A DNA stretch of 64,000 nt from Nitrospinaceae bacterium (lineage in GTDB: Bacteria; Nitrospinota; Nitrospinia; Nitrospinales; Nitrospinaceae). The stretch is taken from the NCBI GenBank assembly GCA_965237905.1, contig OZ250172.1:2624001-2688000 (forward strand). Reading direction: 5' to 3'. Each line of letters begins with the position of its first letter. Within the stretch, counting starts at the first letter, position 1. Position numbers and translations under genes: made by a program. Below the pieces are notes generated by a model that was given only the letters and a program-made list of their open reading frames with translations, was not told where the DNA came from and searched no databases. Shown here piece after piece: positions 14,960 to 47,613 of the stretch.

Positions 14960-16018
14960 TTACTCTCCTTTATATCTTTTGCTCGACAGGATTTGCGACA
15001 CGTTATTGGCGGTGGAATTGACGATGCCGATGATTTTCTGGTAGTCCATGCGCTTCGGGCCGAAAATCGCCAAGGTGCCGATGTTCTGATCGTCCAGCTG
15101 ATAGCTCTGGGCGATCAGACTGCCCGCCTGCATTTCCTCCTCGGCGTTTTCTTCGCCGATGATGATGCTCAGGCCGTTTTGCTTCATGCACAGATCCAGC
15201 AGTTTGATCAGTTTGTTTTTTTCTTCCACCGTTTTCATCAGTTTTTTCATGTTTTCCAGATCGGCGGAAAACTCGGGCTGGTCGAGCATGTGGGCCATCC
15301 CTTCGATCAACAGTTCGCCGTCTTCTTCCCTGTCGGTGAACATCCGGCTCCACAATTCGTTGGCCTTCTTCATCAACTGGTCGTGATGTTCTTTTTCGGT
15401 TTGCATGCGGCGGCGGAGTTCGACCTGAATAGAGTTCAGGGAGCAGCCGGCAAATTCTTCGTTCAAGTATGCAGCAAGGGCGTTCAGGCTGTCCTGCGGG
15501 ACTTCTTCTTTGAGGCGCACGACTTTTTTCTTTACCACGCCCATTTCCGAGATGAAGACGGCCAGCACGCGTTTGCCTTCGATGCGCATGAACTCGATGT
15601 GTTTGAGCGACAGGTTCCAGAAACCCAGGGTCATCACCAACCCGGTCTGATGGGAGTTCTGCGACAGCAGACTACAGGCGGAGCCCAGCACTTCTTCCAG
15701 CGTCTCGGTGTTGCGGTAGGGTTGGGAATCGCTGACGATCGATGCGACCGGTTGCAGTTTCTGCGCGTTGAGGATTTGATTGACGAAATAACGGTAGCCC
15801 CGGTCCGTCGAAACGCGGCCCGCGGACGTATGGGGTTGGTACAGGTAGCCCAACTCTTCCAAGTCCGCCATCACGTTGCGGATGGTGGCAGGGCTCAACC
15901 GTTTCGACAATTTTTTGGAGAGCGTGCGCGACCCCACCGGTTCGGCGGTGGCCACGAAATCGTTGATCGTCTCCAGCAAAATGGTCCGGCTTCTGTCGTC
16001 AAGAATCACTGGGCTCAT
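14960..16018 (-). CDS. hrcA: Heat-inducible transcription repressor HrcA
   Basis: EPVGSRTL, SPATIRNVMADLEELGYL.QPHTSAGR, GPKRMDY. Confidence 0.97.
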   Translation of the reverse strand: MSPVILDDRSRTILLETINDFVATAEPVGSRTLSKKLSKRLSPATIRNVMADLEELGYLYQPHTSAGRVSTDRGYRYFVNQILNAQKLQPVASIVSDSQPYRNTETLEEVLGSACSLLSQNSHQTGLVMTLGFWNLSLKHIEFMRIEGKRVLAVFISEMGVVKKKVVRLKEEVPQDSLNALAAYLNEEFAGCSLNSIQVELRRRMQTEKEHHDQLMKKANELWSRMFTDREEDGELLIEGMAHMLDQPEFSADLENMKKLMKTVEEKNKLIKLLDLCMKQNGLSIIIGEENAEEEMQAGSLIAQSYQLDDQNIGTLAIFGPKRMDYQKIIGIVNSTANNVSQILSSKRYKGE

Positions 16019-17142: not shown

Positions 17143-18555
17143 TTAAAGGATATAGCGGCTCAGGTCTTCGTTTTCGATAATGTCTTTCAGCTTGTCCCGG
17201 ACGGTAGCGGCATCGATTTCAACTTTCTGGTTTCTCATGTCCGGCGCGTCGAACGAAATGCTCTCCAGCAGTTTTTCCATGACCGTTTGGAGCCGCCGCG
17301 CTCCGATGTTTTCCGTGCGTTCGTTGACATAGGCGGACATTCGTGCGATTTCCCTAATGGCGGCGTCCTCAAATTTCAAATGCACCTCTTCCGTTCCCAA
17401 CAGCGCGGTGTACTGCTTGATTAATGCGTTGTCCGGCTCGGTCAGAATGCGGTAAAAATCCTCCTCAGTCAACGATTCCAGCTCGACGCGGATCGGGAAG
17501 CGGCCCTGGAACTCCGGGATCAGGTCCGACGGTTTCGACGCATGAAACGCTCCGGCGGAGATAAACAGAATGTGATCGGTTTTCACGATGCCGTATTTGG
17601 TGTTGATGCTGGAGCCTTCGACGATCGGGAGCAGGTCGCGTTGCACCCCTTCGCGTGATACGTCCGGCCCCTGCATGCCTTGGCCTCCGGTGATCTTGTC
17701 GATCTCGTCGATGAAAATGATGCCGCTTTGTTGAGCTCGGTCGATGGCCATCTGCACGACTTTATCGTGGTCGATCAGGTTCTCCGCTTCCTGCTGGATG
17801 AGAACCTTCAGTGCATCGGGCACCTTAACTTTTTTATTCTTTATTTTTTTGGGCATCAGGTTGCTGAGCATATCCTTGATGTTGTTGTCCATGTCGTCCA
17901 TTCCCGGAGGAGAGACGATTTCCATCATGGGGCCTGATTTTTCCTCAATTTCGATTTCCACCATCCGGTCCTCGAATCGTCCGTCATGCAGATACCCCCG
18001 GAATTTCTCCCGCGTTTGTTCGTATTGCTGTTTGCCCAGCGTGTCGGATGCGAACTCCCGGTTCTCCGGCGAATCATAGCTGGGGTGCGGGGGCAGGAGA
18101 ATATCCAGCAGGCGCTCCTCGGCATACTGGTTGGCTTTTTCCTGCACCTCCTGCTCCATTTCTTCCTGAACCATCCGCTTGGTCAACTCGACCAAATCAC
18201 GCACCATCGATTCGACATCGCGGCCGACGTACCCGACCTCGGTGTACTTGGAGGCTTCCACCTTAACGAAAGGGGACTGGGCCAGTTTGGCCAGCCGTCG
18301 CGCGATTTCCGTTTTGCCGACGCCCGTGGGACCGATCATCAGAATATTTTTGGGCGCCACTTCGTCGCGCATGTTATCCGGTAGTTGTTGCCGCCGCCAC
18401 CGGTTGCGCAGGGCGATGGCCACGGCCCGCTTGGCTTTATCCTGCCCGACAATAAAGTTATCCAGTTCGCTGACGATCTTCTTCGGGGTCAACGACGCCA
18501 TAAAATCCTGTCGGGACTGTTCGCCGGTCTTGGGTGTTTCTACCGCATGTTCCAT
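17143..18555 (-). CDS. hslU: ATP-dependent protease ATPase subunit HslU
   Basis: [32 protein letters not shown], ends DLSRYIL. Confidence 0.98.
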
Positions 18556-30450: not shown

Positions 30451-32178
30451 ATGCCAAAAGCTTACTCATACATCCGAATGTCTACCCAAAAGCAGTTGAA
30501 GGGAGACAGCTTAAAAAGGCAGCTTGACTTATCAAAGGAATATGCCAAGCAACATAACTTAGAGCTAGACGAATCTATAAGAGATATCGGGATATCAGCG
30601 TTTAAAGGGAGAAACATCGAGGAAGGAGCTTTAGGGAAGTTTTTAAAGAAGATCCAAGATGGAGAAATCGAAGGTGGATCGTACTTGTTAGTTGAATCAC
30701 TTGATCGGCTATCAAGGAATGATGTCTTGACTGCCTTGAGCCATTTCATCTCAATTATTAATGCAGGGGTTAGAATTGTCACCTTGGCGGACAACAGAAT
30801 TTATTCCACTGAAGCGATAAAAGCCAATTACACAGAGTTAATAATCAGCCTTACCATCATGAGTAGAGCGCATGAGGAATCTTTGCAAAAGAGTCAACGT
30901 GTTTCAAAGGCTTGGGAAAGCAAAAGAGATAATCTGGAGCATAAAAAGATGACCTCAAAATGTCCAGCATGGTTGCGTTTGTCAAAAAATAAAAAAGAAT
31001 TCGAAATCATTGAAGACAGAGCAGAGTTGATCCGCAAAATATTCTCAGATAGCTGTAATGGGATGGGAAATTATTCGATTGTAAGAAACCTGAATGAAAA
31101 AAAAATTAAAAGCTGGGGGAAATCAACTGGATGGCAACCCTCTTACATCCAAAAAATATTGAATAATCGTGCTGTATTAGGAGAATTCCAACCGCATAAA
31201 TTAATCGAAAAAAAAAGAATCCCAATTGGCGAACCGATTAAAACGTATTACCCAAAAATAATCAATGAGGATCAATTTTATGAGGTGAAAGAAGGAAAAA
31301 ATAATAGAAATATAGGCGGCGGAAGGAAAGGAATAAATATATCAAACCTGTTCTCCCAAATAGCCAAATGCGGATATTGCGGAAGCTCTATGCACTATTT
31401 AAATAAAGGCAGGCCGCCGAAGGGAGGAAGGTATTTAGTTTGCGATAAAGCAAACCGAAAGCTCGGATGCTATATGTCTCTGTGGACATATGATGACTTT
31501 GAGATAAACTTTTTAACATTCGTTTCGGAAATCAATTTAGGAGAGTTATTCAAAGATAAACCCGATACCGAAATTGAAAACTTAAATAAATTGCTGACGT
31601 CCAAAAGGCAGGTGTACCAAGAAAATCAATCAAAAATTCAAAAGTTCACTAATCTGTTTTTGGAAATGAAAGAACCCCCAATATCTTTTGCAGAGAATGC
31701 GAAGGCTTTGGAAAGCGAAAACTCCGAGATTGAAATTGAAACTAAAGAGCTAGAGAGAAAAATAACAAAAATTAAAAGCAACCCTCAGGAGATAAAGGAT
31801 TGTCAGGGAGAAATCCAATTGTTTCTAAGTGAATTAAAAAACTTGGAGGGGGATGACCTCCTTATAGCTCGCTCAAAGATTAACCAAAACATTAAAACTT
31901 TAATTGAACGGATTGATGTGTTTTCCGTTGGCTTTGTGCAGGACGAATCGAGAATACGATTTTTGGAGAGTAAATTGGCGGAAATTGGTTTCAATGAGAG
32001 GAAAATAAAGGATTATTTTAAGTCGATTCAAAAATCATATAATCAAAAAACGGCAAGGCATTATATGGTGCTCTTTAAGGACGGTTCATTCAGATTTATT
32101 AGGCCAGGTTTTAGGGATCCGAAAATATATGTGACTATGACAACTCCTTTAATAAATCTTGATTTTTCCCGCCTTTAG
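30451..32178 (+). CDS. Large serine recombinase (integrase)
   Basis: YSYIRMST catalytic Ser, ESLDRLSR, recombinase domain, zinc ribbon CGYCG...C...C, coiled coil; 575 aa. Confidence 0.96.
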   Translation: MPKAYSYIRMSTQKQLKGDSLKRQLDLSKEYAKQHNLELDESIRDIGISAFKGRNIEEGALGKFLKKIQDGEIEGGSYLLVESLDRLSRNDVLTALSHFISIINAGVRIVTLADNRIYSTEAIKANYTELIISLTIMSRAHEESLQKSQRVSKAWESKRDNLEHKKMTSKCPAWLRLSKNKKEFEIIEDRAELIRKIFSDSCNGMGNYSIVRNLNEKKIKSWGKSTGWQPSYIQKILNNRAVLGEFQPHKLIEKKRIPIGEPIKTYYPKIINEDQFYEVKEGKNNRNIGGGRKGINISNLFSQIAKCGYCGSSMHYLNKGRPPKGGRYLVCDKANRKLGCYMSLWTYDDFEINFLTFVSEINLGELFKDKPDTEIENLNKLLTSKRQVYQENQSKIQKFTNLFLEMKEPPISFAENAKALESENSEIEIETKELERKITKIKSNPQEIKDCQGEIQLFLSELKNLEGDDLLIARSKINQNIKTLIERIDVFSVGFVQDESRIRFLESKLAEIGFNERKIKDYFKSIQKSYNQKTARHYMVLFKDGSFRFIRPGFRDPKIYVTMTTPLINLDFSRL

Positions 32179-32328
32179 ATCAAGTTAAATCCTCTATGAT
32201 CTATTCTTTTTTTGGCCTGATATTATGGGTTACTCCAAAACGAATCTTCTTTTAATCCAAGATAATCAAATCATACATGGTAGGCACATGTGCCACGAAT
32301 CTTAGGAGATTAAATCAAACCTAACAAC

Positions 32329-32398
32329 AGCTGGTCTGGTAGTAGTAGCTAGTCTGGTAGTAGTAGCTGGTCTGGTAGTGGTAGCTGGTCTGGTAGTA
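32329..32398. repeat. Tandem repeat, 4 x 18 bp (agctggtctggtagtagt), iteron-like
   Basis: Units start at 32329, 32347, 32365 and 32383 (last one partial), with at most one mismatch each. Confidence 0.9.
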
Positions 32399-32625
32399 CC
32401 AAATGGTAAGGTAATAACATCCAGTTTGTTAGGAGTGGGAATACCTATTTTTACCCTTTTTGTCCTTTTAATTTAAATTACAAGTGGCACACGTTCCATT
32501 GTTATATAATCTGGGTAATTATGCCCTCGTCGATGATAGCATTTAGAGCTGTTAGCAGAAAAGAGGTAATGGTCAAAGGCAGAAGGTCTAACTTTATGTA
32601 GGGTGCAGCTTAAAGGGGCAGGTTA

Positions 32626-33015
32626 TTAGTTGCGATTATATTTTTTTATGATTCTTCTTACCCCGGTTTTAGTCCATCTTTTCCCCCTAATAGTTGGAAT
32701 ACAAGCTTCGGCATCTAACCAATCAGCAATCCTCTCTAAGCTAAACTCTTTCTCCAATAATGGCTCCATTTCTTTCCATACTTTTTTTTGATACTCTTCC
32801 GCTTTTTTAATTTTTGCTTTCCTTGCAGCAGAGGTATCTTTATTCCTGACTTGGTCTAGATTAGGGTTCCCTAGTTTGATCCCCCTTTTTTTCCTCTCTT
32901 CTAAAGCAGCCTTGGTGCGCTGAGAGATTAATATTCGTTCTTCTTCCGACTTCCTAGCCATTCCGGTTAATACCCTATAAGGTAATTTATCAAATTTCTG
33001 GATACCCTTTAGCAC
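32626..33015 (-). CDS. Truncated serine-resolvase-like protein (C-terminal half only)
   Basis: EERILISQRTKAAL...GIKLGNP and SLERIADWL...RGKRWTKTGVRRI; no N-terminal YxRVS catalytic domain. Confidence 0.75.
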   Translation of the reverse strand: MLKGIQKFDKLPYRVLTGMARKSEEERILISQRTKAALEERKKRGIKLGNPNLDQVRNKDTSAARKAKIKKAEEYQKKVWKEMEPLLEKEFSLERIADWLDAEACIPTIRGKRWTKTGVRRIIKKYNRN

Positions 33016-33104
33016 AATGATACCCCATGGATTATAAATTATACTGGGAAAACCAAAACCTCAGAAGGAAAATAAATTCTTAACCTTTTAGCACAATGAT
33101 ACCC
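33008..33104. repeat. 18-bp direct repeat tttagcacaatgataccc x2 in the divergent promoter region
   Basis: Copies at 33008-33025 and 33087-33104. Confidence 0.8.
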
Positions 33105-33176
33105 TTGATCTTATAAATATAATTAAGGGGTTTTCAGAGTTGAATTTTGGGTGTCACTAATCGAAAGGGTATTTGA

Positions 33177-33788
33177 ATGAATTATTCGGTATTAAAAAAC
33201 CCGGAAAAGAGGAGTTTTTTCCGCCGTCAAATGGAGGAAAGATCTGAAAAATGGTTTAGAAATTACACCAAAAACCCAAAGCATCTTCTCGCCAACATGT
33301 TGCGGGGCAAGAAGTTTGATTATTTTGTCACTCCAACATTGAAAGGCTTCCGAAAGCATAACTCTATCTGTCAAACGATGGATAAACAAGATCTAACCAG
33401 AGATCAGGTGGAGCGAGTTGTTGGGCATTTTAGAAATATCCTAAAGAAGAAATTATATGGTCGTGGTCCATTCCGTATAAATTTCGTTGCAATCATTCAT
33501 ATGGAAACTGACCACCCGAATGTTCATATATTGATGGGTGAGCCGGATCAAAATTCGAACTTTAAAGGAAATGTACCGTTTGAAGTACTTATTCGAGAAT
33601 GCTGGAATAAGATCAAAATAGCGGGAAAAATTATTGACGTTAAAAGGATTTGGGAAGATGAAGATTTGGATGGCTGTTTACTCTCTTCAGAAGAAACAGT
33701 TTTTTATTATATGATGAAGGAAATTAAAGCCTGGAATGGAAATTTGGATAACGTCTGCTTTCTGAGTATGAATTTAGTGGAAAACTGA
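33177..33788 (+). CDS. Putative HUH-superfamily replication initiator/relaxase-like protein
   Basis: Motif I-like FVTPTL, motif II-like HPNVHIL, motif III-like YYMMK. Confidence 0.55.
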   Translation: MNYSVLKNPEKRSFFRRQMEERSEKWFRNYTKNPKHLLANMLRGKKFDYFVTPTLKGFRKHNSICQTMDKQDLTRDQVERVVGHFRNILKKKLYGRGPFRINFVAIIHMETDHPNVHILMGEPDQNSNFKGNVPFEVLIRECWNKIKIAGKIIDVKRIWEDEDLDGCLLSSEETVFYYMMKEIKAWNGNLDNVCFLSMNLVEN

Positions 33789-34105
33789 AACTGAGAACCT
33801 TTGTGTGCGATGCACCATTTGGAAACGGAGTTAAAGCTCCAAATTCTGGTTCCTTTAAATATTGGGTACGATTTGAAGAGTATTTAATAATGCTCTTGTT
33901 AAAATACCTACGTCTAAATTAGGTTCATAAGAACTACATTTCCCCAGTTTCCTAAATCACAAATCTCTAAAACCTTTTTAAATATATAAAACCACATGTT
34001 TCTTTTAATAATAATGAGTTAGAACAATTTGGACCTTGAGTTCTGAAAATAAATATTTTAATTTATTTAAAACCTAAGAATTTAAAAATATTTTTGAGGG
34101 TTAAA

Positions 34106-34702
34106 ATGGCCAAACAAGGTAAAGCTAAAGTTCTTAGTGAGCAGGAATTCAAGAGGGTGGTTCGTCATCAAATTACCGCAAAACATGGGCTCAGAAATGT
34201 TGCACTTTTGCACATCTCCTTTTATCTAGGCCTACGAGCCAAGGAAATGGCTTCCCTAAAAATTTGTGATGTCGTTGACTCCACCGGGAATTTAAAGGAG
34301 GAGCTTACCCTCACAAGAGAAATGACAAAGGGTAATCAAAGCAGAGCTATTTATCTCACAAATCCAAAAGTAAGAAAGGCCCTCCAGGAATACATTGAGC
34401 ATAGGAAAAATATCGAAGGAACCTATTTTCATGAAGCCTCATTATTTCGAAGTCAAATTTCAGGAAAGTTCTCTCCAAATACAATGCAACTGCTTTTCTC
34501 AAATATGTATAAAGACGTGGGCCTTGAGGGCGCATCAAGTCACAGTGGACGAAGAAGTTTCGCAACCAAGTTATTGGAGCAGGGTGTGAATATTAAATCG
34601 GTTCAAACTCTACTTGGTCATTCCAGTATCATGACCACATCCATTTACGTAGAGGACAATCCTTATTTATTGGCGAACATCTCACGGAATTTGAAAATAT
34701 GA
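34106..34702 (+). CDS. Small tyrosine recombinase (catalytic domain only)
   Basis: GLRAKEM, TKG, SHSGRRSFAT, LLGHSSIMTTSIY; 198 aa. Confidence 0.92.
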   Translation: MAKQGKAKVLSEQEFKRVVRHQITAKHGLRNVALLHISFYLGLRAKEMASLKICDVVDSTGNLKEELTLTREMTKGNQSRAIYLTNPKVRKALQEYIEHRKNIEGTYFHEASLFRSQISGKFSPNTMQLLFSNMYKDVGLEGASSHSGRRSFATKLLEQGVNIKSVQTLLGHSSIMTTSIYVEDNPYLLANISRNLKI

Positions 34703-34720
34703 TAATTTAATTAGGCCTAA

Positions 34721-34975
34721 ATGTATTGTGTCACAAAAACCTATGGTCATTATGTGAGAGATAGAATTGAACCCGCCCTCCATGACTGGTTGAGAACAAA
34801 AATAAAAGGAAACTATGAGATTAAGGAAAACGAACTTGATCCCAAAACAATGACTCGAACCATAACGGTTGGTTTTGAGGAAAAAAATGATTGTCAAAAA
34901 TTTTCACTTTTAAGAATACCAGTCGATTTATTCAAAGAGAAGTGGGGTTATGGAGAAATGGGGAGTTCATTATGA
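34721..34975 (+). CDS. Hypothetical protein
   Basis: 84 aa ORF directly after the recombinase. Confidence 0.5.
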   Translation: MYCVTKTYGHYVRDRIEPALHDWLRTKIKGNYEIKENELDPKTMTRTITVGFEEKNDCQKFSLLRIPVDLFKEKWGYGEMGSSL

Positions 34976-35078
34976 ACGAGTTTCTTAGCGACTATGCATT
35001 TGTGCCCGATCTTAACATTAACTCTGGGCCCGTGTTTAGGGGGAAGGTCAATACTAAAATAATTCAGACACCAAAGGC

Positions 35079-35561
35079 TTATGGTTTGCTTTCGTATGCC
35101 TCTTTGACCTTAGGGACTGCTTCCCTGACAGCAGAGAGGATTACCAGGCTATGACATAATAAAGGTTCACTCCGTTGGGGCGCGAACCAATAGTTGTTGA
35201 ATTTACCGCCATGGAAAAGATTATTGCGGATACGGCGAATATACAATAGAAGTTTTTCGGAAGGAGAATTTGTATTTGGTTCAGATATCTCCCAATCTAA
35301 TTTACCACCAATAATTACTTGTTTTTTTGGCGGATCAGCCAAAATAAACTTAATCGCTTCATCTAATTCTAAAGTGGTTGGATTAACGAATAGTTTTTTA
35401 ACTTCAGGTTTACGCGAAAACTTTGTCCAGTCTGCTTCGACAAAACCCCTAACAATTTTGTAATAAGGATTAACTTTTAAGGCATATTCGGTTCGGGAGA
35501 ATTCTTTAAAGAATCGAAATGCTAATTTATCAAGGTGTTGGTCTTGTGTCATTTCATGCAA
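35079..35561 (-). CDS. HEPN-domain protein (putative RNase)
   Basis: RxxxxH motif in IRNNLFHGGK. Confidence 0.7.
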   Translation of the reverse strand: MHEMTQDQHLDKLAFRFFKEFSRTEYALKVNPYYKIVRGFVEADWTKFSRKPEVKKLFVNPTTLELDEAIKFILADPPKKQVIIGGKLDWEISEPNTNSPSEKLLLYIRRIRNNLFHGGKFNNYWFAPQRSEPLLCHSLVILSAVREAVPKVKEAYESKP

Positions 35562-41672: not shown

Positions 41673-42188
41673 TTAACCTAATAAATTTCCCAAACGAAAG
41701 CGCATAGCCGATTTGCTAACCTTAAATTGGATAGCAAGTTTGTTTAATTCTTCATCCTTATCAATATCGATACCTTTTCCGCCAAGAGCTTCTTCAATAA
41801 ATTTTTTAGGCATTAGAAGTTCTGCGGCAAAAGAATTAGCTTGTATCTCTATTCCATTTATTCCCGCAGAAGATATTGAATCTCGCATAAGCATAGGAAA
41901 TTCTTTATCAACATGTATTCCGTCGGAAATTTCATTTTTGTGAAAAATCAAATGACCAATTTCATGTGAAATTGTAAATCTTTGCCTATTAGGGTGATGT
42001 AATGAATTTACTCCTATAATTGGGCAACCATTTTTAAAGAAAATCATTCCTGAAATTTCATCGTCTAGAGGAGAATATCGCAGTTTTGCTCCTAGCTTTT
42101 TTGCAATGCGATCAACAGGAACAGGACCATAAACCACATTATATTCATCTAACAATTGTTTAGCACGATTTTCGAATTTTGTGGCCAT
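41673..42188 (-). CDS. ImmA/IrrE family metallopeptidase (CapP-like)
   Basis: RQRFTISHEIGH, EIQANSFAAELLMP; aggag RBS. Confidence 0.92.
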   Translation of the reverse strand: MATKFENRAKQLLDEYNVVYGPVPVDRIAKKLGAKLRYSPLDDEISGMIFFKNGCPIIGVNSLHHPNRQRFTISHEIGHLIFHKNEISDGIHVDKEFPMLMRDSISSAGINGIEIQANSFAAELLMPKKFIEEALGGKGIDIDKDEELNKLAIQFKVSKSAMRFRLGNLLG

Positions 42189-42226
42189 ATTACTCTCCTT
42201 ATACATGCTTAAGACTCAATTGCACC

Positions 42227-42556
42227 TTAAGCATCTCTAATAATTTTAAATATTGCCTGCTTCTGTTCTTCTGTTAAATCTTCGTCCTTATGCAATCGAA
42301 AGGAAGACACTGAGGATTTTGATGGTGTAAATTTTTCTATGGGGGGTAAGAGCTTGTCCAATGAATCAAGATTTAACACTTGAGCAATGCAATAAAGGCG
42401 GTGGGTCAATACATGCTGTCTCCCGGCTTCAATATTTGCTAAAGATGCCCGAGAAATTCCAATTTGATCAGCAAGTTGACCTTGTGTAATGTCCTCACTT
42501 TTACGAATTTTTTTTATTTTTTGTCCAACGAGGAGTGAAAATTTGTCAGGTTCCAT
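42227..42556 (-). CDS. XRE-family HTH repressor (CapH-like)
   Basis: GQKIKKIRK..ITQGQLADQIGISRASLANIEAG. Confidence 0.92.
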   Translation of the reverse strand: MEPDKFSLLVGQKIKKIRKSEDITQGQLADQIGISRASLANIEAGRQHVLTHRLYCIAQVLNLDSLDKLLPPIEKFTPSKSSVSSFRLHKDEDLTEEQKQAIFKIIRDA

Positions 42557-42561
42557 AACTC

Positions 42562-42666
42562 CTTATACTAGTAAACACAGGATATGTCAAGCAAGCAAAC
42601 AATTTGTTTGGGATACAAACATATATATTTTTTTTATATTGACATCTGGCAGCAGATTGATATGCT
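42562..42666. promoter_or_regulatory. Divergent sigma70 promoters and candidate operators between the regulator operon and CBASS
   Basis: + strand TTGACA(42639)-16-TATGCT; - strand TTGACA(42590)-17-TATAAG; palindromes caaacaa-t-ttgtttg, tgtttg-N5-caaaca and atctg-N4-cagat. Confidence 0.65.
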
Positions 42667-42753
42667 CACAGATAAGTAATGGCACCACGTTTCTCGGAAT
42701 CAGCTATTTATCCTGGTTGATCCGACCTGAATCCAAAATAGGAGGCAATAATC

Positions 42754-43767
42754 TTGAAGGAAGGGGTAGAAGAAACTGGACATCCGAAGCGGCGTATCCT
42801 ATGCATCGATGGGGGCGGCATCCTCGGTACATTCCCTGCGGCCTTTTTGGCCGAACTGGAGCAGCATCTCGAACACCCGATCGGTTCGTACTTCGACCTG
42901 ATTGCGGGAACATCTACAGGCGGCATCCTCGGGATTGCCCTGTCCTTGGGTCTTCCCGCATCCGAAATTCTTGACCTTTACGAAAAACGAGGTCCAGAGA
43001 TTTTCGGCCAGGATCATGGTGCGCTTATAAGTTTGATTTTAAGGAAAATTCGCGGTTTCCGGCAGCTATACAGACGCAAATATGATTCCGATGCGCTTCG
43101 TTCCGTTCTAAAGGAAGTTTTGGGTACCAGGCGTATTGGTGAAGCTCGGACCCGACTGGTTGTTCCGGCTTGGAACCCAGTGGCTCAATCAGTTTACATT
43201 TATAAGACCGCACATCACCATCGCCTGAAAACAGATTACCGATCGTTCGCCGTCGATGCTGCACTCGCCACGTCTGCAGCGCCGACCTATTTCCAGCATC
43301 ACATCACGCAAAACGATGTTGGATTGCTTGACGGGGGAATCTGGGCGAATAACCCGATCGCCATAGCCGTAGTGGAGGCCATTGCCGTTTTGGGTTGGCC
43401 TCGGGAATCATTGCAAATTTTAAGCCTTAGCTGTTTGGATGAAGCCTACTCAATCCCGAAATGGGTGGGAGTTGGCACACTCGGATTGAAAATCCGCAAT
43501 CTATTTATGGACGGCCAGTCGAAAGGCGCTATGGGCATCGCCAAGCTACTCACAGGCCATGAACATGAACGCAAAGCCATTTACCGGATCAGCCACACAA
43601 TCCCATATAACGCCTTCAAGATGGATGACACGCGTGTGATTCAGGACCTGAAAGGTCTCGGGCATACCATGGCTCGTGATAGGAACCCTGTTCTGGAACC
43701 CGTATTTTTTGACAAACCGGCGAAAGAGTTCACGCCGATTTACCAACTTAATGAGGAATCGCAATGA
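42754..43767 (+). CDS. capV: CBASS patatin-like phospholipase effector
   Basis: DGGGILG, GTSTG, SAAPTYF, DGGIWANNP; adjacent to the CD-NTase. Confidence 0.92.
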   Translation: MKEGVEETGHPKRRILCIDGGGILGTFPAAFLAELEQHLEHPIGSYFDLIAGTSTGGILGIALSLGLPASEILDLYEKRGPEIFGQDHGALISLILRKIRGFRQLYRRKYDSDALRSVLKEVLGTRRIGEARTRLVVPAWNPVAQSVYIYKTAHHHRLKTDYRSFAVDAALATSAAPTYFQHHITQNDVGLLDGGIWANNPIAIAVVEAIAVLGWPRESLQILSLSCLDEAYSIPKWVGVGTLGLKIRNLFMDGQSKGAMGIAKLLTGHEHERKAIYRISHTIPYNAFKMDDTRVIQDLKGLGHTMARDRNPVLEPVFFDKPAKEFTPIYQLNEESQ

Positions 43768-44963
43768 CAATTGACACAGAAAAATACAACAGATTTTTGG
43801 ATAGCGTTGCGGAAGAAATTGATATACCGCCGAGCAAATATCAGGATGCGGTTGAGCGCTACCAGTCCGTCGGAAAGTGGCTGGAGGCAGGTGAGTACTT
43901 AGAATCTTCCGGCAAGCCAAGCATTTACCCGCAAGGCTCTTTTCGCCTGGGAACGGTGGCCAGGCCTATAAGGGGCGGCGTCGAGGCAAGCTATGACATT
44001 GATCTTGTATGTGAGTTGCCGATCGAAAAAAAACGGACCGACCCGTATTCGATCAAGACTATGGTCGGTGATCGCTTACGCGAGCACGGCACATATCGCA
44101 AATTGCTTGACAAGGAAGGTAAGCGATGCTGGACGCTCGAATACGCCGAAGAGGATGAGGTTGGCTTTCATCTGGACGTTCTGCCATCCGTCCCGGATCA
44201 AAAGGGTCTTCTAGATACCTCTATTGCCATCACCAATAAACAAGCAGGAGTCTACGATTGGTCTTCGAGCGATCCGAATGGCTTTGGGCTCTGGTTTGAT
44301 CGCCAGAATCGGGCGGCGTTCGAGGTCGCCCTGATCGAACAAAAGCGATCCATTCAGGAGCGGATGCCCAATCTTTATGGGAAAGTTGACGACGTTCCAG
44401 ACCAACTCGTCCGCACGCCCCTCCAAAGGTCGATTCAGCTCATGAAACGTCACCGTGATGTGAAGTTTAATGACGCACAGTATAATGGTTACGCGCCGAT
44501 CTCGATCATCATTACGACCTTGGCTGCGCAGTTTTATCAGGATGAGCCGGATACCTTTTCGGCGCTGACCAGAATTATCGACCAACTCCATGAGCATGCG
44601 GTTCTTGTTGAAAATGGGACCGTGAACAAAGCTCTCGCGCCCTTCAGTCCTATTAAACGCACGTCTGACGGAAAGTGGTACATAGGCAATCCGGTCAATT
44701 CAGATGAGAATTTCGCCGACCGCTGGCACGAGGATAAACATGCACGTGCGAGGGCCTTTTTCTCTTGGGTGGCTGCCTTAAAGGAGGACCTCATAAACAT
44801 TTTGGCTGAAACACGTCCTGATGTCATGCGCAAACGACTTACCGCTGTGCTTGGTGCGGCTGTTGTGTCTGGTCATCTCGACCTGATCTCACCAGCCCAG
44901 GCCGCCGTGGTCAGTGCCCCAAGTATTCATATCTCGGGAGCAGCTAAACCCTGGAGGGCATGA
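43764..44963 (+). CDS. cGAS/DncV-like nucleotidyltransferase (CD-NTase)
   Basis: YPQGSFRLGT, YDIDL, FHLDVLP, KRHRD, NPVN..ENFADRW. Confidence 0.95.
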   Translation: MTIDTEKYNRFLDSVAEEIDIPPSKYQDAVERYQSVGKWLEAGEYLESSGKPSIYPQGSFRLGTVARPIRGGVEASYDIDLVCELPIEKKRTDPYSIKTMVGDRLREHGTYRKLLDKEGKRCWTLEYAEEDEVGFHLDVLPSVPDQKGLLDTSIAITNKQAGVYDWSSSDPNGFGLWFDRQNRAAFEVALIEQKRSIQERMPNLYGKVDDVPDQLVRTPLQRSIQLMKRHRDVKFNDAQYNGYAPISIIITTLAAQFYQDEPDTFSALTRIIDQLHEHAVLVENGTVNKALAPFSPIKRTSDGKWYIGNPVNSDENFADRWHEDKHARARAFFSWVAALKEDLINILAETRPDVMRKRLTAVLGAAVVSGHLDLISPAQAAVVSAPSIHISGAAKPWRA

Positions 44964-45713
44964 GTGAAGGAAGAACTCTCCGCCCAAATCGCCGAGCTAC
45001 AGACGGTTCATACGGGTCTGACAAAAATCGCGGAGAAGGATAACGAAACTGTCGTTTCCGGACCGTTGCCGTTCAAGGCATCGGCTGACGGGCTTAGCCC
45101 AATTACCGAATGCTTTGAGATAGAATTAATCATCCCCAATAAATACCCGAAGATCCTGCCGCGTGTTAGGGAAACCGGTGGGAAAGTCGACGGCGATTAT
45201 GACCACCTCTATAAGGATGGAACGCTCTGTCTAGCTGTCCCGATCGAGGAGCGCAGGAGATTTGGAGAACAACCCACCCTTCTAGGTTTTATAAACAAAC
45301 TGGTAATTCCCTATTTTTTTGGCTACTACTACTGGGAAAAAAACGGCAAATATCCTTTCGACGAGCAAGCCCATGGCCCCGATGGGATTGTCCGGCATTA
45401 TATGGATTCCCTCCATCTACCGGATGAAATCTCAGCTCTGGCTGTCGTTTCCTACCTTCTTGAGTATGGCTATCGCGGTCATCATTTATGTCCTTGTGGA
45501 AGCAGCGAAAAGGTTCGAAATTGCCATGGCAAAGCATTACACGACCTACATGAACAGCACAATGAAATCACTTTAAAAAATGATTTCTTGTCGGCGCTGG
45601 ATGTCTGCATCAACAAAGTAAAAGAGGACAAACTTAAAATTCCTGAATCCCTTAAAAGACAGGTTCTTCGAATTTACAATAAGATCAAAAACAAAATCTT
45701 CGATGTTGACTAA
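44964..45713 (+). CDS. Prokaryotic E2-like protein with C-terminal SEC-C motif (E2-only CBASS ancillary)
   Basis: IPNKYP..LP.V...HLYKDGTLCL E2 core with Cys; CPCGS.EK.RNCH SEC-C motif. Confidence 0.82.
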   Translation: MKEELSAQIAELQTVHTGLTKIAEKDNETVVSGPLPFKASADGLSPITECFEIELIIPNKYPKILPRVRETGGKVDGDYDHLYKDGTLCLAVPIEERRRFGEQPTLLGFINKLVIPYFFGYYYWEKNGKYPFDEQAHGPDGIVRHYMDSLHLPDEISALAVVSYLLEYGYRGHHLCPCGSSEKVRNCHGKALHDLHEQHNEITLKNDFLSALDVCINKVKEDKLKIPESLKRQVLRIYNKIKNKIFDVD

Positions 45714-45756
45714 CAGAGTTGGGTCTTATAATTAATAATATATAATATAATAATTT

Positions 45757-45954
45757 ATGGCCATCTTCATCCCCCACAGATGCCCGATATGCTTCGAGAG
45801 CGTGACGCTGATACTGCCGCAGCATAAGGGTGGTGCGTTTAAGGGTACAGCGAAGGGGCAGTGTTTAAATTGCATGGATGAGCAGGAACACGATTTAACT
45901 GTCCCCGCCAATAGGAAAGATTTAATCAAAGTCAAAGGACCAGAACGGCAGTAA
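45757..45954 (+). CDS. Small putative zinc-finger protein
   Basis: CPIC...CLNC in 65 aa. Confidence 0.5.
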   Translation: MAIFIPHRCPICFESVTLILPQHKGGAFKGTAKGQCLNCMDEQEHDLTVPANRKDLIKVKGPERQ

Positions 45955-46062
45955 CCGCGATCAGGAGAATTTTAGAGAGGACCAATCACCCAAAGCAGAC
46001 GTTCGCCTAACGGCTTCGACCGGCAGGAACCGGCCATAAGCGGACATTTACCCATATGCGGA

Positions 46063-46347
46063 TTATTCATCAATAAATTCATTTGCTGGAGATTTGATAA
46101 AATCACTACTCAATGGGAAATATGCTCGTAGACCTCCATCATCTATGCATCCGTGAACTCTAATATCACCATCAGGTTTATCGTCCCAATGAGTGATGAT
46201 TTCAATATGGTATTTCTTACCATCTTTTGATGTTACTTCCCTGGTAACAGGTTCTTTTTCGATATTCTTTTGTAAATCTTGATGAGAAATAGGACGGAAT
46301 AATTCTAATTCATTTTCAAGTAATTTAATTGCTTCTTGTTTATCCAT
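46063..46347 (-). CDS. Hypothetical protein (cassette-like gene)
   Basis: 94 aa AT-rich ORF tightly bounded by repeats. Confidence 0.75.
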   Translation of the reverse strand: MDKQEAIKLLENELELFRPISHQDLQKNIEKEPVTREVTSKDGKKYHIEIITHWDDKPDGDIRVHGCIDDGGLRAYFPLSSDFIKSPANEFIDE

Positions 46348-46505
46348 AAGTTTTTCAATTTCCGCTTTAGGTCGTTTTCAGATTAAGTAATATTTCGGCC
46401 ACAAGCGGACACTTGCCCAAGCACAAGAAACCCCGCTCTAGTCGGGGCCTCATCTTGGTCCTCGGTTCTTCTTGTTATGCGCTGAGTCGAGGGGAAGGGC
46501 GGACC

Positions 46506-46994
46506 TTATCTGGACCTGTGCGCTTCCAGCTCGATCTCGATCATGAACCCGGGCAGGGCGAGCCCTTTGACCTCGAGCCAGGTTCCGGTCGGAAACTGCT
46601 TTGTGTAGATCGAGTTACGATACGAAGCGACCTCGAGAAACTTCGCCATGTTGGTCGTATAGACGTTCTCAACTATCACGTCGTCGAAGGTATAGCCGTA
46701 GTGCTTCAGAACCTTATCCAGATCGGAGTAAGCGTTTTTCATCTGCTGCTCCAAATCGCCGACAGCTGTCGGGTTGCCCTCATCATCCATGCTCACGGCG
46801 CCCGAGATCTTGATGTCATCACCGATCTTCACGGCATGCGTGTAGCCGTAGGCCTTTTCGACCTCCGGTCGCAAAAGGAAATACTCCGGCATTTCTTTCG
46901 CCAGCACGATCGTCTCGTCGGATTCCGGGCCGGGGCAGCCGGACAGGAAAGCCAGGAAGAGTGTTGCAAGGACGAGCAGTGATTTTTTGTTCAT
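46506..46994 (-). CDS. RidA/YjgF family protein with export signal
   Basis: YTHAVK.GD.IKISG, VIVENVY, WLEVKGLA.PGFMIEIE; lipobox-like LSGC; aggag RBS. Confidence 0.85.
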   Translation of the reverse strand: MNKKSLLVLATLFLAFLSGCPGPESDETIVLAKEMPEYFLLRPEVEKAYGYTHAVKIGDDIKISGAVSMDDEGNPTAVGDLEQQMKNAYSDLDKVLKHYGYTFDDVIVENVYTTNMAKFLEVASYRNSIYTKQFPTGTWLEVKGLALPGFMIEIELEAHRSR

Positions 46995-47160
46995 TGTTTT
47001 TCTCCTCAGATTTGTCAAACGGCCGCTTTGGGTCGTTTGCGGGCTAACGATCAGCGCGATCGAACGTCCGCTTTCCGTGCTAACTGTTATGACTCATCGT
47101 CTGTCCACAATAGGATTTCTTCTTCAAAAATCCCCCACCCGCTCCACCAACTCCGGTTGG

Positions 47161-47613
47161 TCATTCAACCGGACACCACCCCACCCTTGCTCCGCCGTGA
47201 TACTCCCTACCAAGTCCCTGCTGGATGATCTTCTCTGCCAGATTGTCCCCGCTGGTCAGCTTCACGTCCGCCACTACTCGACCGGCGTACTTCCCATGCT
47301 TGACGTTTGCCAGTAGCACCACCTCACCCAAGATCAGCCCTTTCACGAAGTCGCGTGCTTCAATGGCCTTCTGTTTCTCAGATTCACACTTTCCACGGAT
47401 TTCAGGAGTATCCACGCCATTAACCCGGACGCTGGCCTTTGCTTCCAGACCGGGCCACGGGTAGGCTTCCACCGTGAACGTGTCGCCGTCATAGACCTTT
47501 ATGACCTTGGCGGACACCGGGCCAGTAATGGCGGGATCAGCCCATGAGGTAACGGGGGCCAGGAGAAGGCATACGGCAAGAATCAGGATCGGGATTTTGT
47601 TCGGAGTATCCAT
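47161..47613 (-). CDS. Thermonuclease (SNase) family protein
   Basis: VIKVYDGDT, VRVNGVDTPE, KYAGRVVA; signal peptide. Confidence 0.9.
   Translation of the reverse strand: MDTPNKIPILILAVCLLLAPVTSWADPAITGPVSAKVIKVYDGDTFTVEAYPWPGLEAKASVRVNGVDTPEIRGKCESEKQKAIEARDFVKGLILGEVVLLANVKHGKYAGRVVADVKLTSGDNLAEKIIQQGLGREYHGGARVGWCPVE

Follow-up and report, generated by a model that had tools for sequence, protein, structure and literature searches.

Sites of two spacer classes around two genes in a Nitrospinaceae genome: a possible cassette system with a small candidate tyrosine recombinase

Introduction

Integrons are defined by the integrase IntI, the attI site, and attC sites, and the attC core is the motif pair RYYYAAC...GTTRRRY. 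Cre/loxP consists of one enzyme and a site with dyad symmetry, and recombinase-mediated cassette exchange uses incompatible spacers. Inverted repeats were reportedly described by Nilsson, Karlsson, and Haggard-Ljungquist in 2004 at the Z/fun slot of P2-like coliphages; no enzyme is said to have been named for these repeats.

The accessible text of PMC13141974 describes the pdif modules of Acinetobacter Rep_3/OrfX plasmids: XerC/XerD sites with a 6-bp spacer are inversely oriented, and two module types alternate. Rearrangement is reported to take place between matching spacers, with loss of module pairs and replacement of single modules, and in the same text dif modules are called unique to Acinetobacter (PMC13141974). 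The rAID-1 clusters, as far as the accessible part of the preprint goes (bioRxiv 10.1101/471110), are non-integron arrays in which a XerD-like gene at the 5' end heads immunity genes, and only Bacteroidales are reported there. As for the P2/P4 hotspots, the accessible part of a paper from 2026 states that the recombination processes "still need to be elucidated" (PMC13586616). Recombination at cos ends is speculated in the accessible part of another source for hotspots adjacent to cos, which are a different locus from fun(Z) (PMC9122126).

In the present study, a block of repeated sites was analyzed in a stretch of 64,000 nucleotides from a Nitrospinaceae bacterium (hereafter, the window). The block is read as a two-gene cassette array with 30-bp sites of two spacer classes, which would be served by a small recombinase of about 200 residues encoded elsewhere. 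From the sequence comparisons described below, this reading is given a probability of roughly three in four.

Organization of the site block

Each site is composed of two 12-bp arms with a 6-bp spacer between them (12-6-12). Two spacer classes are distinguished among these sites, A with CGGCCA and B with CGACCC. This class structure refines the reading of four sites in an initial annotation of the window, which had also given an outer copy 45 bp further out on each side. The sequences of the four inner sites and both outer copies are exactly as described there, and the offset is correct on both sides. The order of the block is A+, gene, B-, linker, A+, gene, B-. The conserved 12-bp arm, whose consensus is AAAGCGGACATT, faces the gene at each site, as had been claimed for the sites bracketing both genes.

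Site A1 (46019-46048, plus strand) consists of the outer arm, the spacer CGGCCA (46031-46036), and the gene-facing arm. Site B1 (46357-46386, minus strand) has its gene-facing arm at 46357-46368 and its spacer, CGACCT on the minus strand, at 46369-46374. The outer arms of B1 and A2 overlap by 3 bp, and the B and A spacers are separated by a linker of 21 bp (46375-46395); at other loci, for example L202, this linker position is occupied by a recombinase gene. Site A2 (46384-46413, plus strand; spacer CGGCCA at 46396-46401) forms the left breakpoint of the cassette of a Rid-family gene. Site B2 (47018-47047, minus strand) forms the right one: its gene-facing arm is located at 47018-47029 and its spacer, CGACCC on the minus strand, at 47030-47035. 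From spacer to spacer, the Rid cassette is 640 bp in length (46396-47035). The A-to-A unit of 365 bp (46031-46395) contains the cassette of a 94-aa gene plus the linker and is absent from a relative, G004. A 24-bp repeat, identical at 21 of 24 positions, is common to A1 and A2.

The outer-left site (45974-46003, plus strand; 17.1 bits with the motif model described below) has an intact arm at 45992-46003 and a degenerate B spacer, TCACCC, at 45986-45991; in one relative, the canonical CGACCC spacer occupies this position. Together with A1 it forms a 45-bp tandem end, which was found again in relatives (L024, L025, and L010). The outer-right copy (47063-47092, minus strand) has an intact arm at 47063-47074, a non-canonical and variable spacer, and a score below 10 bits, and it recurs 45 bp from B sites in relatives (L002 and L036). 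The left and right ends of the block each turn up independently in relatives. The symmetry that had been proposed for the block therefore applies to the arms but not to the outer spacers, since the left one is a degenerate B and the right one is non-canonical.

Motif model and orientation of the sites

A position weight matrix was built from 17 sites of this genome outside the window, with the four inner sites held out. These scored 26.3, 20.4, 19.1, and 26.6 bits (A1, B1, A2, and B2, respectively), while the chance rate above 18 bits, estimated from the reversed genome, was 0.003 hits per kb. In the whole genome, 21 matches above 20 bits were found versus 3 in the null, and they are gathered in a few clusters. 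The motif model and genome scan suggested in the initial annotation thus placed the inner sites far above chance, and the breakpoints described below coincide with sites.

Single sites are weak palindromes, with 3-5 of 12 arm matches, and the dyad becomes visible only at the level of the family (6.1-7.4 of 12). The outer arm is absent from the model and averages to the inverse of the inner arm, which fits one enzyme binding both halves. The arm facing the gene or cargo is the best conserved (16-19 bits versus 7-8 bits), a difference due in part to the construction of the model. Conserved flanks of 45-60 bp surround many sites.

The A and B sites are opposed in 186 of 194 adjacent pairs, up to 39 of which were selected by the search pattern itself; L062 and L020 were left out of the pair and polarity counts as overlaps. 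The polarity of the gene from B to A is only a tendency: it was seen in 16 of 20 cases in this phylum and in 47 of 74 overall, the latter with a crude choice of open reading frames. A larger array with six sites is present in the same genome at 242043-248161; it holds several small genes, among them a second Rid copy and two internally duplicated genes.

Cargo genes

The first gene (46063-46347, minus strand) encodes 94 aa of no known family. Distances of 9 bp and 14 bp separate its start from the B1 arm and its stop from the A1 arm, respectively. It could not be assigned to any family in Pfam, NCBIfam, or PADLOC, and its atlas matches are unnamed clusters. Nine other near-full-length homologues were found with 47-87% identity, and the metagenome scan gave no relative. 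Cover of this gene was low in the marine metagenome runs examined, which is uninformative by itself. One other genomic copy, in G100, shows 82% nucleotide identity and is accompanied only by a decayed B remnant, without an A site.

The second gene (46506-46994, minus strand) encodes 162 aa from the ATG at 46994, and its start is 23 bp from the B2 arm. It had been called RidA. The protein passes the Pfam model PF01042 but falls below the NCBIfam Rid cut-off (47.7 versus 106 bits), so that "Rid family" is the safer label. The contrast drawn earlier between an AT-rich and a GC-rich gene is confirmed by GC contents of 32% and 54%, respectively. Copies of the Rid cassette with 98-100% identity were found in G004, in G007, and at the second place in this genome when 41 genomes were searched, and the protein is present in 3 of 120 genomes. 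Copies in this identity range also occur in marine metagenomes, from six studies, and most copies have their ends at the spacers. The Rid protein also shows a lipoprotein-like N-terminal signal with the lipobox LSGC, recognized by eye. The Rid family is mostly cytoplasmic, and such a signal is unusual for it.

Breakpoints and gene content

When G007 is compared with the window, the matching stretch opens with the A2 spacer, from its first base, and is broken by the base that follows the B2 spacer. G004 (L002) lacks the 365-bp unit with the 94-aa gene: there, the A1 outer arm runs straight into the A2 inner arm, with the join in or next to the A spacer. The unit may have been gained here or lost in G004, and because of the 24-bp repeat the G004 form could also come from a short-homology deletion. 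For the second Rid copy in this genome, the right-hand break comes after the B spacer, but no A site is present on the left.

Marine metagenomes show the same positions. In seven runs from different studies (run X15, the probable source, was excluded from the counts), a contig piece starting at 46395-46396 was found in six and one ending at 47035 in three, and one contig is exactly the 640-bp Rid unit. Many other marine contigs agree with the left end of the block as far as 46048, or with the right end starting at 47018-47023, and pass into unrelated sequence beyond it. Such contig ends probably represent branch points between alternative neighbors.

Replacement in a fixed slot is seen upstream of a proS-like gene, where the B and A sites are constant and three different cargos are present in G000 (this genome), G004, and G005. 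Spacer-precise ends, gain or loss of a unit, and replacement in a slot are in this way supported directly by the compared sequences, in the same manner as the sites and their opposed A/B order. The natural junctions agree, in comparative terms, with crossover within sites of matching spacer. The coincidence of the sites with gene-content breakpoints, as the initial reading requires, is borne out by the G004 and G007 junctions and by the marine contig ends at the spacers. The units are very probably real cassettes.

At L203 and L025/L030, in three genomes of two families, the sites enclose two cargo genes (268 aa and about 230 aa) that are homologous between these genomes, and in one of the genomes this cargo adjoins the recombinase gene.

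Distribution of the sites

An 18-bp degenerate pattern matched 49 of 120 genomes of the phylum, and the reversed control matched none. The exact B-to-A junction pattern was found at 40 loci among the GTDB genomes, which belong, by record titles, to Bacteroidota, Alpha-, Beta-, and Gammaproteobacteria, Nitrospinota, Nitrospirota, and Planctomycetota; a 447-bp record with an archaeal title (L076) is probably contamination. Dense arrays occur in Lysobacter and Massilia. The densest locus has 31 site hits in 14 kb, and no enzyme gene was found there. In plasmid records, blastn with the left end of the block gave short matches only, and a viral scan with the B pattern gave three stretches, one of them within a long open reading frame.

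In phage P2, the fun(Z) slot carries 12-6-12 sites with the same arm at 15332-15361 (plus strand) and 17429-17458 (minus strand), both facing the cargo. Their spacers are GTGCCA and GAGCGA, whereas those of the present block are CGGCCA and CGACCC; the spacer pair is not common to both. Since the arm is shared with this slot, the repeats are not wholly undescribed. Among the best 40 of 112 phage matches listed, most stop at the spacer or near where the arm ends. Five further P2-like slots contain different genes in each; with two mismatches allowed, both sites were recognized in two slots, one site in two, and none in one. Phage 899 has two cassettes with a junction.

Candidate recombinase

A family of tyrosine recombinases of about 200 residues, with a conserved starting PWNKG motif, was found in 4 of the 40 junction loci. 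In order to avoid circularity, metagenome loci for the enzyme were picked by protein similarity alone: the best 80 of at least 578 were taken, and 77 distinct loci were left after removal of three duplicates. Downstream of the gene, 21 of 73 of the loci drawn from these best 80 have an outward-facing site, mostly at 35-46 bp from the stop codon; 25 of 74 have one upstream, and 33 of 70 have one on either side. The expectation from shuffles was 0.06 downstream, 0.04 upstream, and about 0.1 combined, and sites in the wrong orientation numbered 1 and 1. The remaining 37 of 70 loci had no site above the threshold. A spacer-blind test of the arm at the enzyme loci gave only 18 of 73 versus none in a control window. 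The association of this enzyme family with the sites is a direct observation.

The recombinase gene and its two sites form a compact unit of about 0.75 kb. In G057, a genome of the same order, the gene takes the linker position of an array, with a B site on one side and an A site on the other. On three enterobacterial plasmids, the sites beside members of the family have the spacers GTGCCA and GAGCGA, which are also those of the P2 fun(Z) slot. The family was detected on 329 of 72,556 plasmid records and in only 3 of 50,697 phage records. On one E. coli plasmid (L095, 5840-5950), the recombinase has its upstream site directly next to an attC-like sequence, recognized by eye; this suggests contact between the two cassette systems.

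An alignment of 22 sequences shows no variation at R57, K85, H154, R157, H180, and Y189. Both the R-K-HxxR-H-Y catalytic set and the tyrosine-recombinase fold are thus found, the former in the alignment and the latter in a structural model. The alignment-based model (pLDDT 82; the single-sequence fold was poor, with pLDDT 44) matches the catalytic region of XerA and Cre with TM values of 0.70-0.73 over the query. No NCBIfam model claims the protein above its cut-off, and its score on the integron-integrase model TIGR02249 is 26-29 bits. As the protein contains little beyond the catalytic domain, a partner protein may be needed.

The family was not found in this genome, even as a remnant at low stringency, and 2 of 120 genomes of the phylum have it. 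This gap is the main weakness of the enzyme assignment, the site pattern being present in 49 of 120 genomes. That most site-bearing genomes of the phylum lack the gene would also be expected if the sites were mainly the ends and footprints of a selfish mini-element consisting of the recombinase only, with cargo movement as a secondary effect of short-homology or homology-facilitated events in the conserved flanks. The compactness of the 0.75-kb unit, the 24-bp repeat common to A1 and A2, the fusion of the second Rid copy without an A site, and the conserved flanks at many sites point in the same direction. However, the breakpoints lie at the spacer edge and are not spread through the flanks, and the best-conserved arm faces the cargo, with the reservation about model construction given above. 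Gene starts at 9 and 23 bp from the arm, and up to 31 site hits in 14 kb at a locus with no enzyme gene found, also argue against such an element, which is considered unlikely.

Recombination of the sites by the host XerC/XerD, as with the Acinetobacter pdif modules, is less probable still. The arm matches the host dif-like or pdif arms at only 3-5 of 11 positions (ungapped, in one register), in agreement with the earlier statement that the sites are not dif. A dif-like site of the host's own lies apart from the block at genome position 124583, near the maximum of the cumulative GC skew at 116487. Furthermore, both arms are derived from one motif, as expected for one enzyme, and the sites flank the genes of a different recombinase family. 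On the other side stand two genes of XerD/XerC size and type in this genome, which would explain arrays without a dedicated enzyme, and the likeness in architecture: a 6-bp spacer, alternating modules, and spacer matching, as given in the accessible text of PMC13141974.

The initial annotation had suggested that the array is driven by a tyrosine recombinase, possibly the catalytic-domain-only integrase encoded at 34106-34702 of the window. The general part of this suggestion fits the recombinase-type sites and their linkage to the candidate family, but the named enzyme does not. The gene of the 34106 integrase shares a low-GC island with the array, at a distance of 11 kb, and the protein is similar in size; nevertheless, none of five loci (its own and those of four homologues) has a site, the best score being 7.5 bits. 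The proposed co-occurrence likewise failed to appear: 4 of 120 genomes have homologues, and no homologue was found in the 10 congeners searched, though 9 of the 10 carry sites. With the site-linked family the protein shares only about 26% identity, and no relatives of it were found in viral contigs. Its role as the driver of the array is very improbable. In all, this genome gave five tyrosine-recombinase matches, none above the integron-integrase cut-off.

Finally, a reading of the repeats as degenerate attC sites or chance matches, for which the compact, co-oriented single genes and the RYYYAAC-like words at 46005 and nearby might speak, is already largely refuted and is the least probable of all: no RYYYAAC...GTTRRRY pair 40-150 bp apart was found on either strand of 45850-47250, as the denial of attC in the initial annotation had implied, the best TIGR02249 score in this genome is 90.6 bits against a cut-off of 265, opposed sites are present at both ends of each gene, and the held-out sites score far above chance.

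Neighborhood of the block

Directly left of the block, at 42230-45713 of the window, is a CBASS-type operon with a patatin effector, a CD-NTase cyclase, and an E2-like protein; divergent HTH and IrrE/CapP-like genes lie beside it at 41673-42556. This operon is not bounded by sites. Between the operon and the block, a second dispersed repeat was observed at 45754-45960, which consists of an AT-rich leader and an open reading frame for a Cys-rich protein of 65 aa. Partial copies of it are present at six other places in this genome, and many are present in relatives, often within or beside site-bounded slots. This repeat may serve as a homology anchor.

Part of a low-GC island is found at 30451-35463, with a large serine recombinase, the small integrase at 34106, and a 203-aa open reading frame without a Pfam or NCBIfam match, followed by genes for a 927-aa DNA methyltransferase and an exonuclease-I-like protein. 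After the serine recombinase gene, a short intergenic tandem repeat of CTGGT/AGT words is present at 32330-32400. No transposase was found among 27 proteins scanned, and an Rfam scan gave no significant hit, with one chance-level match elsewhere. No tRNA was found in the window. In G004 (L002, 840-1240), tRNA-like sequences, recognized by eye, lie just right of the cassette end, and beyond this point the sequence of the window differs; the island may thus sit at a tRNA attachment site there.

Proposed mechanism

The steps of site cleavage, spacer matching, excision or insertion, and exchange are modeled here on Cre/loxP and on XerCD/pdif. The candidate recombinase would cut and rejoin DNA at the 6-bp spacers, with cleavage at their edges, and a single enzyme would act on both arms of each site, as Cre does at loxP. 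Recombination would take place only between sites with the same spacer. An A-by-A or a B-by-B event would excise or insert a circle of gene plus linker (365 bp for the 94-aa unit), and such insertions would build co-oriented arrays. One crossover at A combined with one at B would swap the cassette in a fixed slot. Because A differs from B, a cassette would, according to this proposal, be neither inverted nor lost through its own two ends.

The recombinase gene itself behaves as a module in the linker position, which means that it would arrive transiently on mobile DNA. The visiting enzyme would act in trans and then be lost, so as to leave orphan arrays like the present block.

The array is regarded as a real, spacer-precise, site-specific system of gene modules, possibly a class of its own. 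A wider proposal seems somewhat better than an even bet: there may be a third general cassette system beside integrons and dif modules, in which a mobile recombinase of about 200 residues and two mutually exclusive site classes bring about natural cassette exchange in many phyla, the enterobacterial form of which would be the enzyme behind cargo swapping at P2 fun(Z). If this is true, genes would be captured and swapped one by one along a widespread route that is invisible to integron and dif tools. It would also offer a candidate enzyme for the fun(Z) hotspot of P2, the P2/P4 hotspots being called unexplained in general. The site motif might be used for mining accessory and defense genes, and for cassette exchange the small candidate recombinase, with its two natural orthogonal sites, would make a compact tool. 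With two cargo genes and no enzyme, the locus is a modest one; its value is the unusually clean breakpoint evidence in a marine nitrifier lineage.

Comparison with known systems

No description of this system of enzyme and sites was found in the literature consulted; the coverage was incomplete, so that a prior description is possible. The accessible part of PMC8138268 makes no mention of the family of about 200 residues.

The slot of P2 is similar in its arm, its 12-6-12 layout, and its variable cargo, and differs in the spacer pair. Integrons are similar in that compact, mostly co-oriented arrays of single-gene cassettes persist without an enzyme. They differ, however, in the nature of the site: an integron cassette has one folded attC, whereas here each cassette has two short sites of the double-stranded type. 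Moreover, neither IntI nor an attC core pair is present here, and the enzyme gene is found between two sites inside arrays.

The pdif modules share the 6-bp spacer, the placement of genes between inversely oriented sites, and the alternation of module types. In contrast to them, the arms of the present sites are unrelated to the XerC and XerD boxes and both come from one motif, and there are two fixed spacer classes, whereas the spacers of pdif vary. In addition, the sites described here are chromosomal, occur across phyla, and are linked to a dedicated recombinase of about 200 residues.

The rAID-1 clusters resemble the present arrays in that genes are arrayed outside integrons, with repeated motifs between them and a tyrosine recombinase, and are set apart by what the accessible part of their description gives: a XerD-like gene heads the rAID-1 array, whereas no tyrosine recombinase match lies within 11 kb of the block.

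Cre/loxP with heterospecific sites for cassette exchange is similar in its logic to the proposed system: one enzyme acts on a dyad site, the spacer sets the partner and the direction, and two incompatible spacers allow exchange. The differences are that the present system is a natural one, that its spacer is 6 bp in length, and that its candidate enzyme is about 120 residues shorter than Cre.
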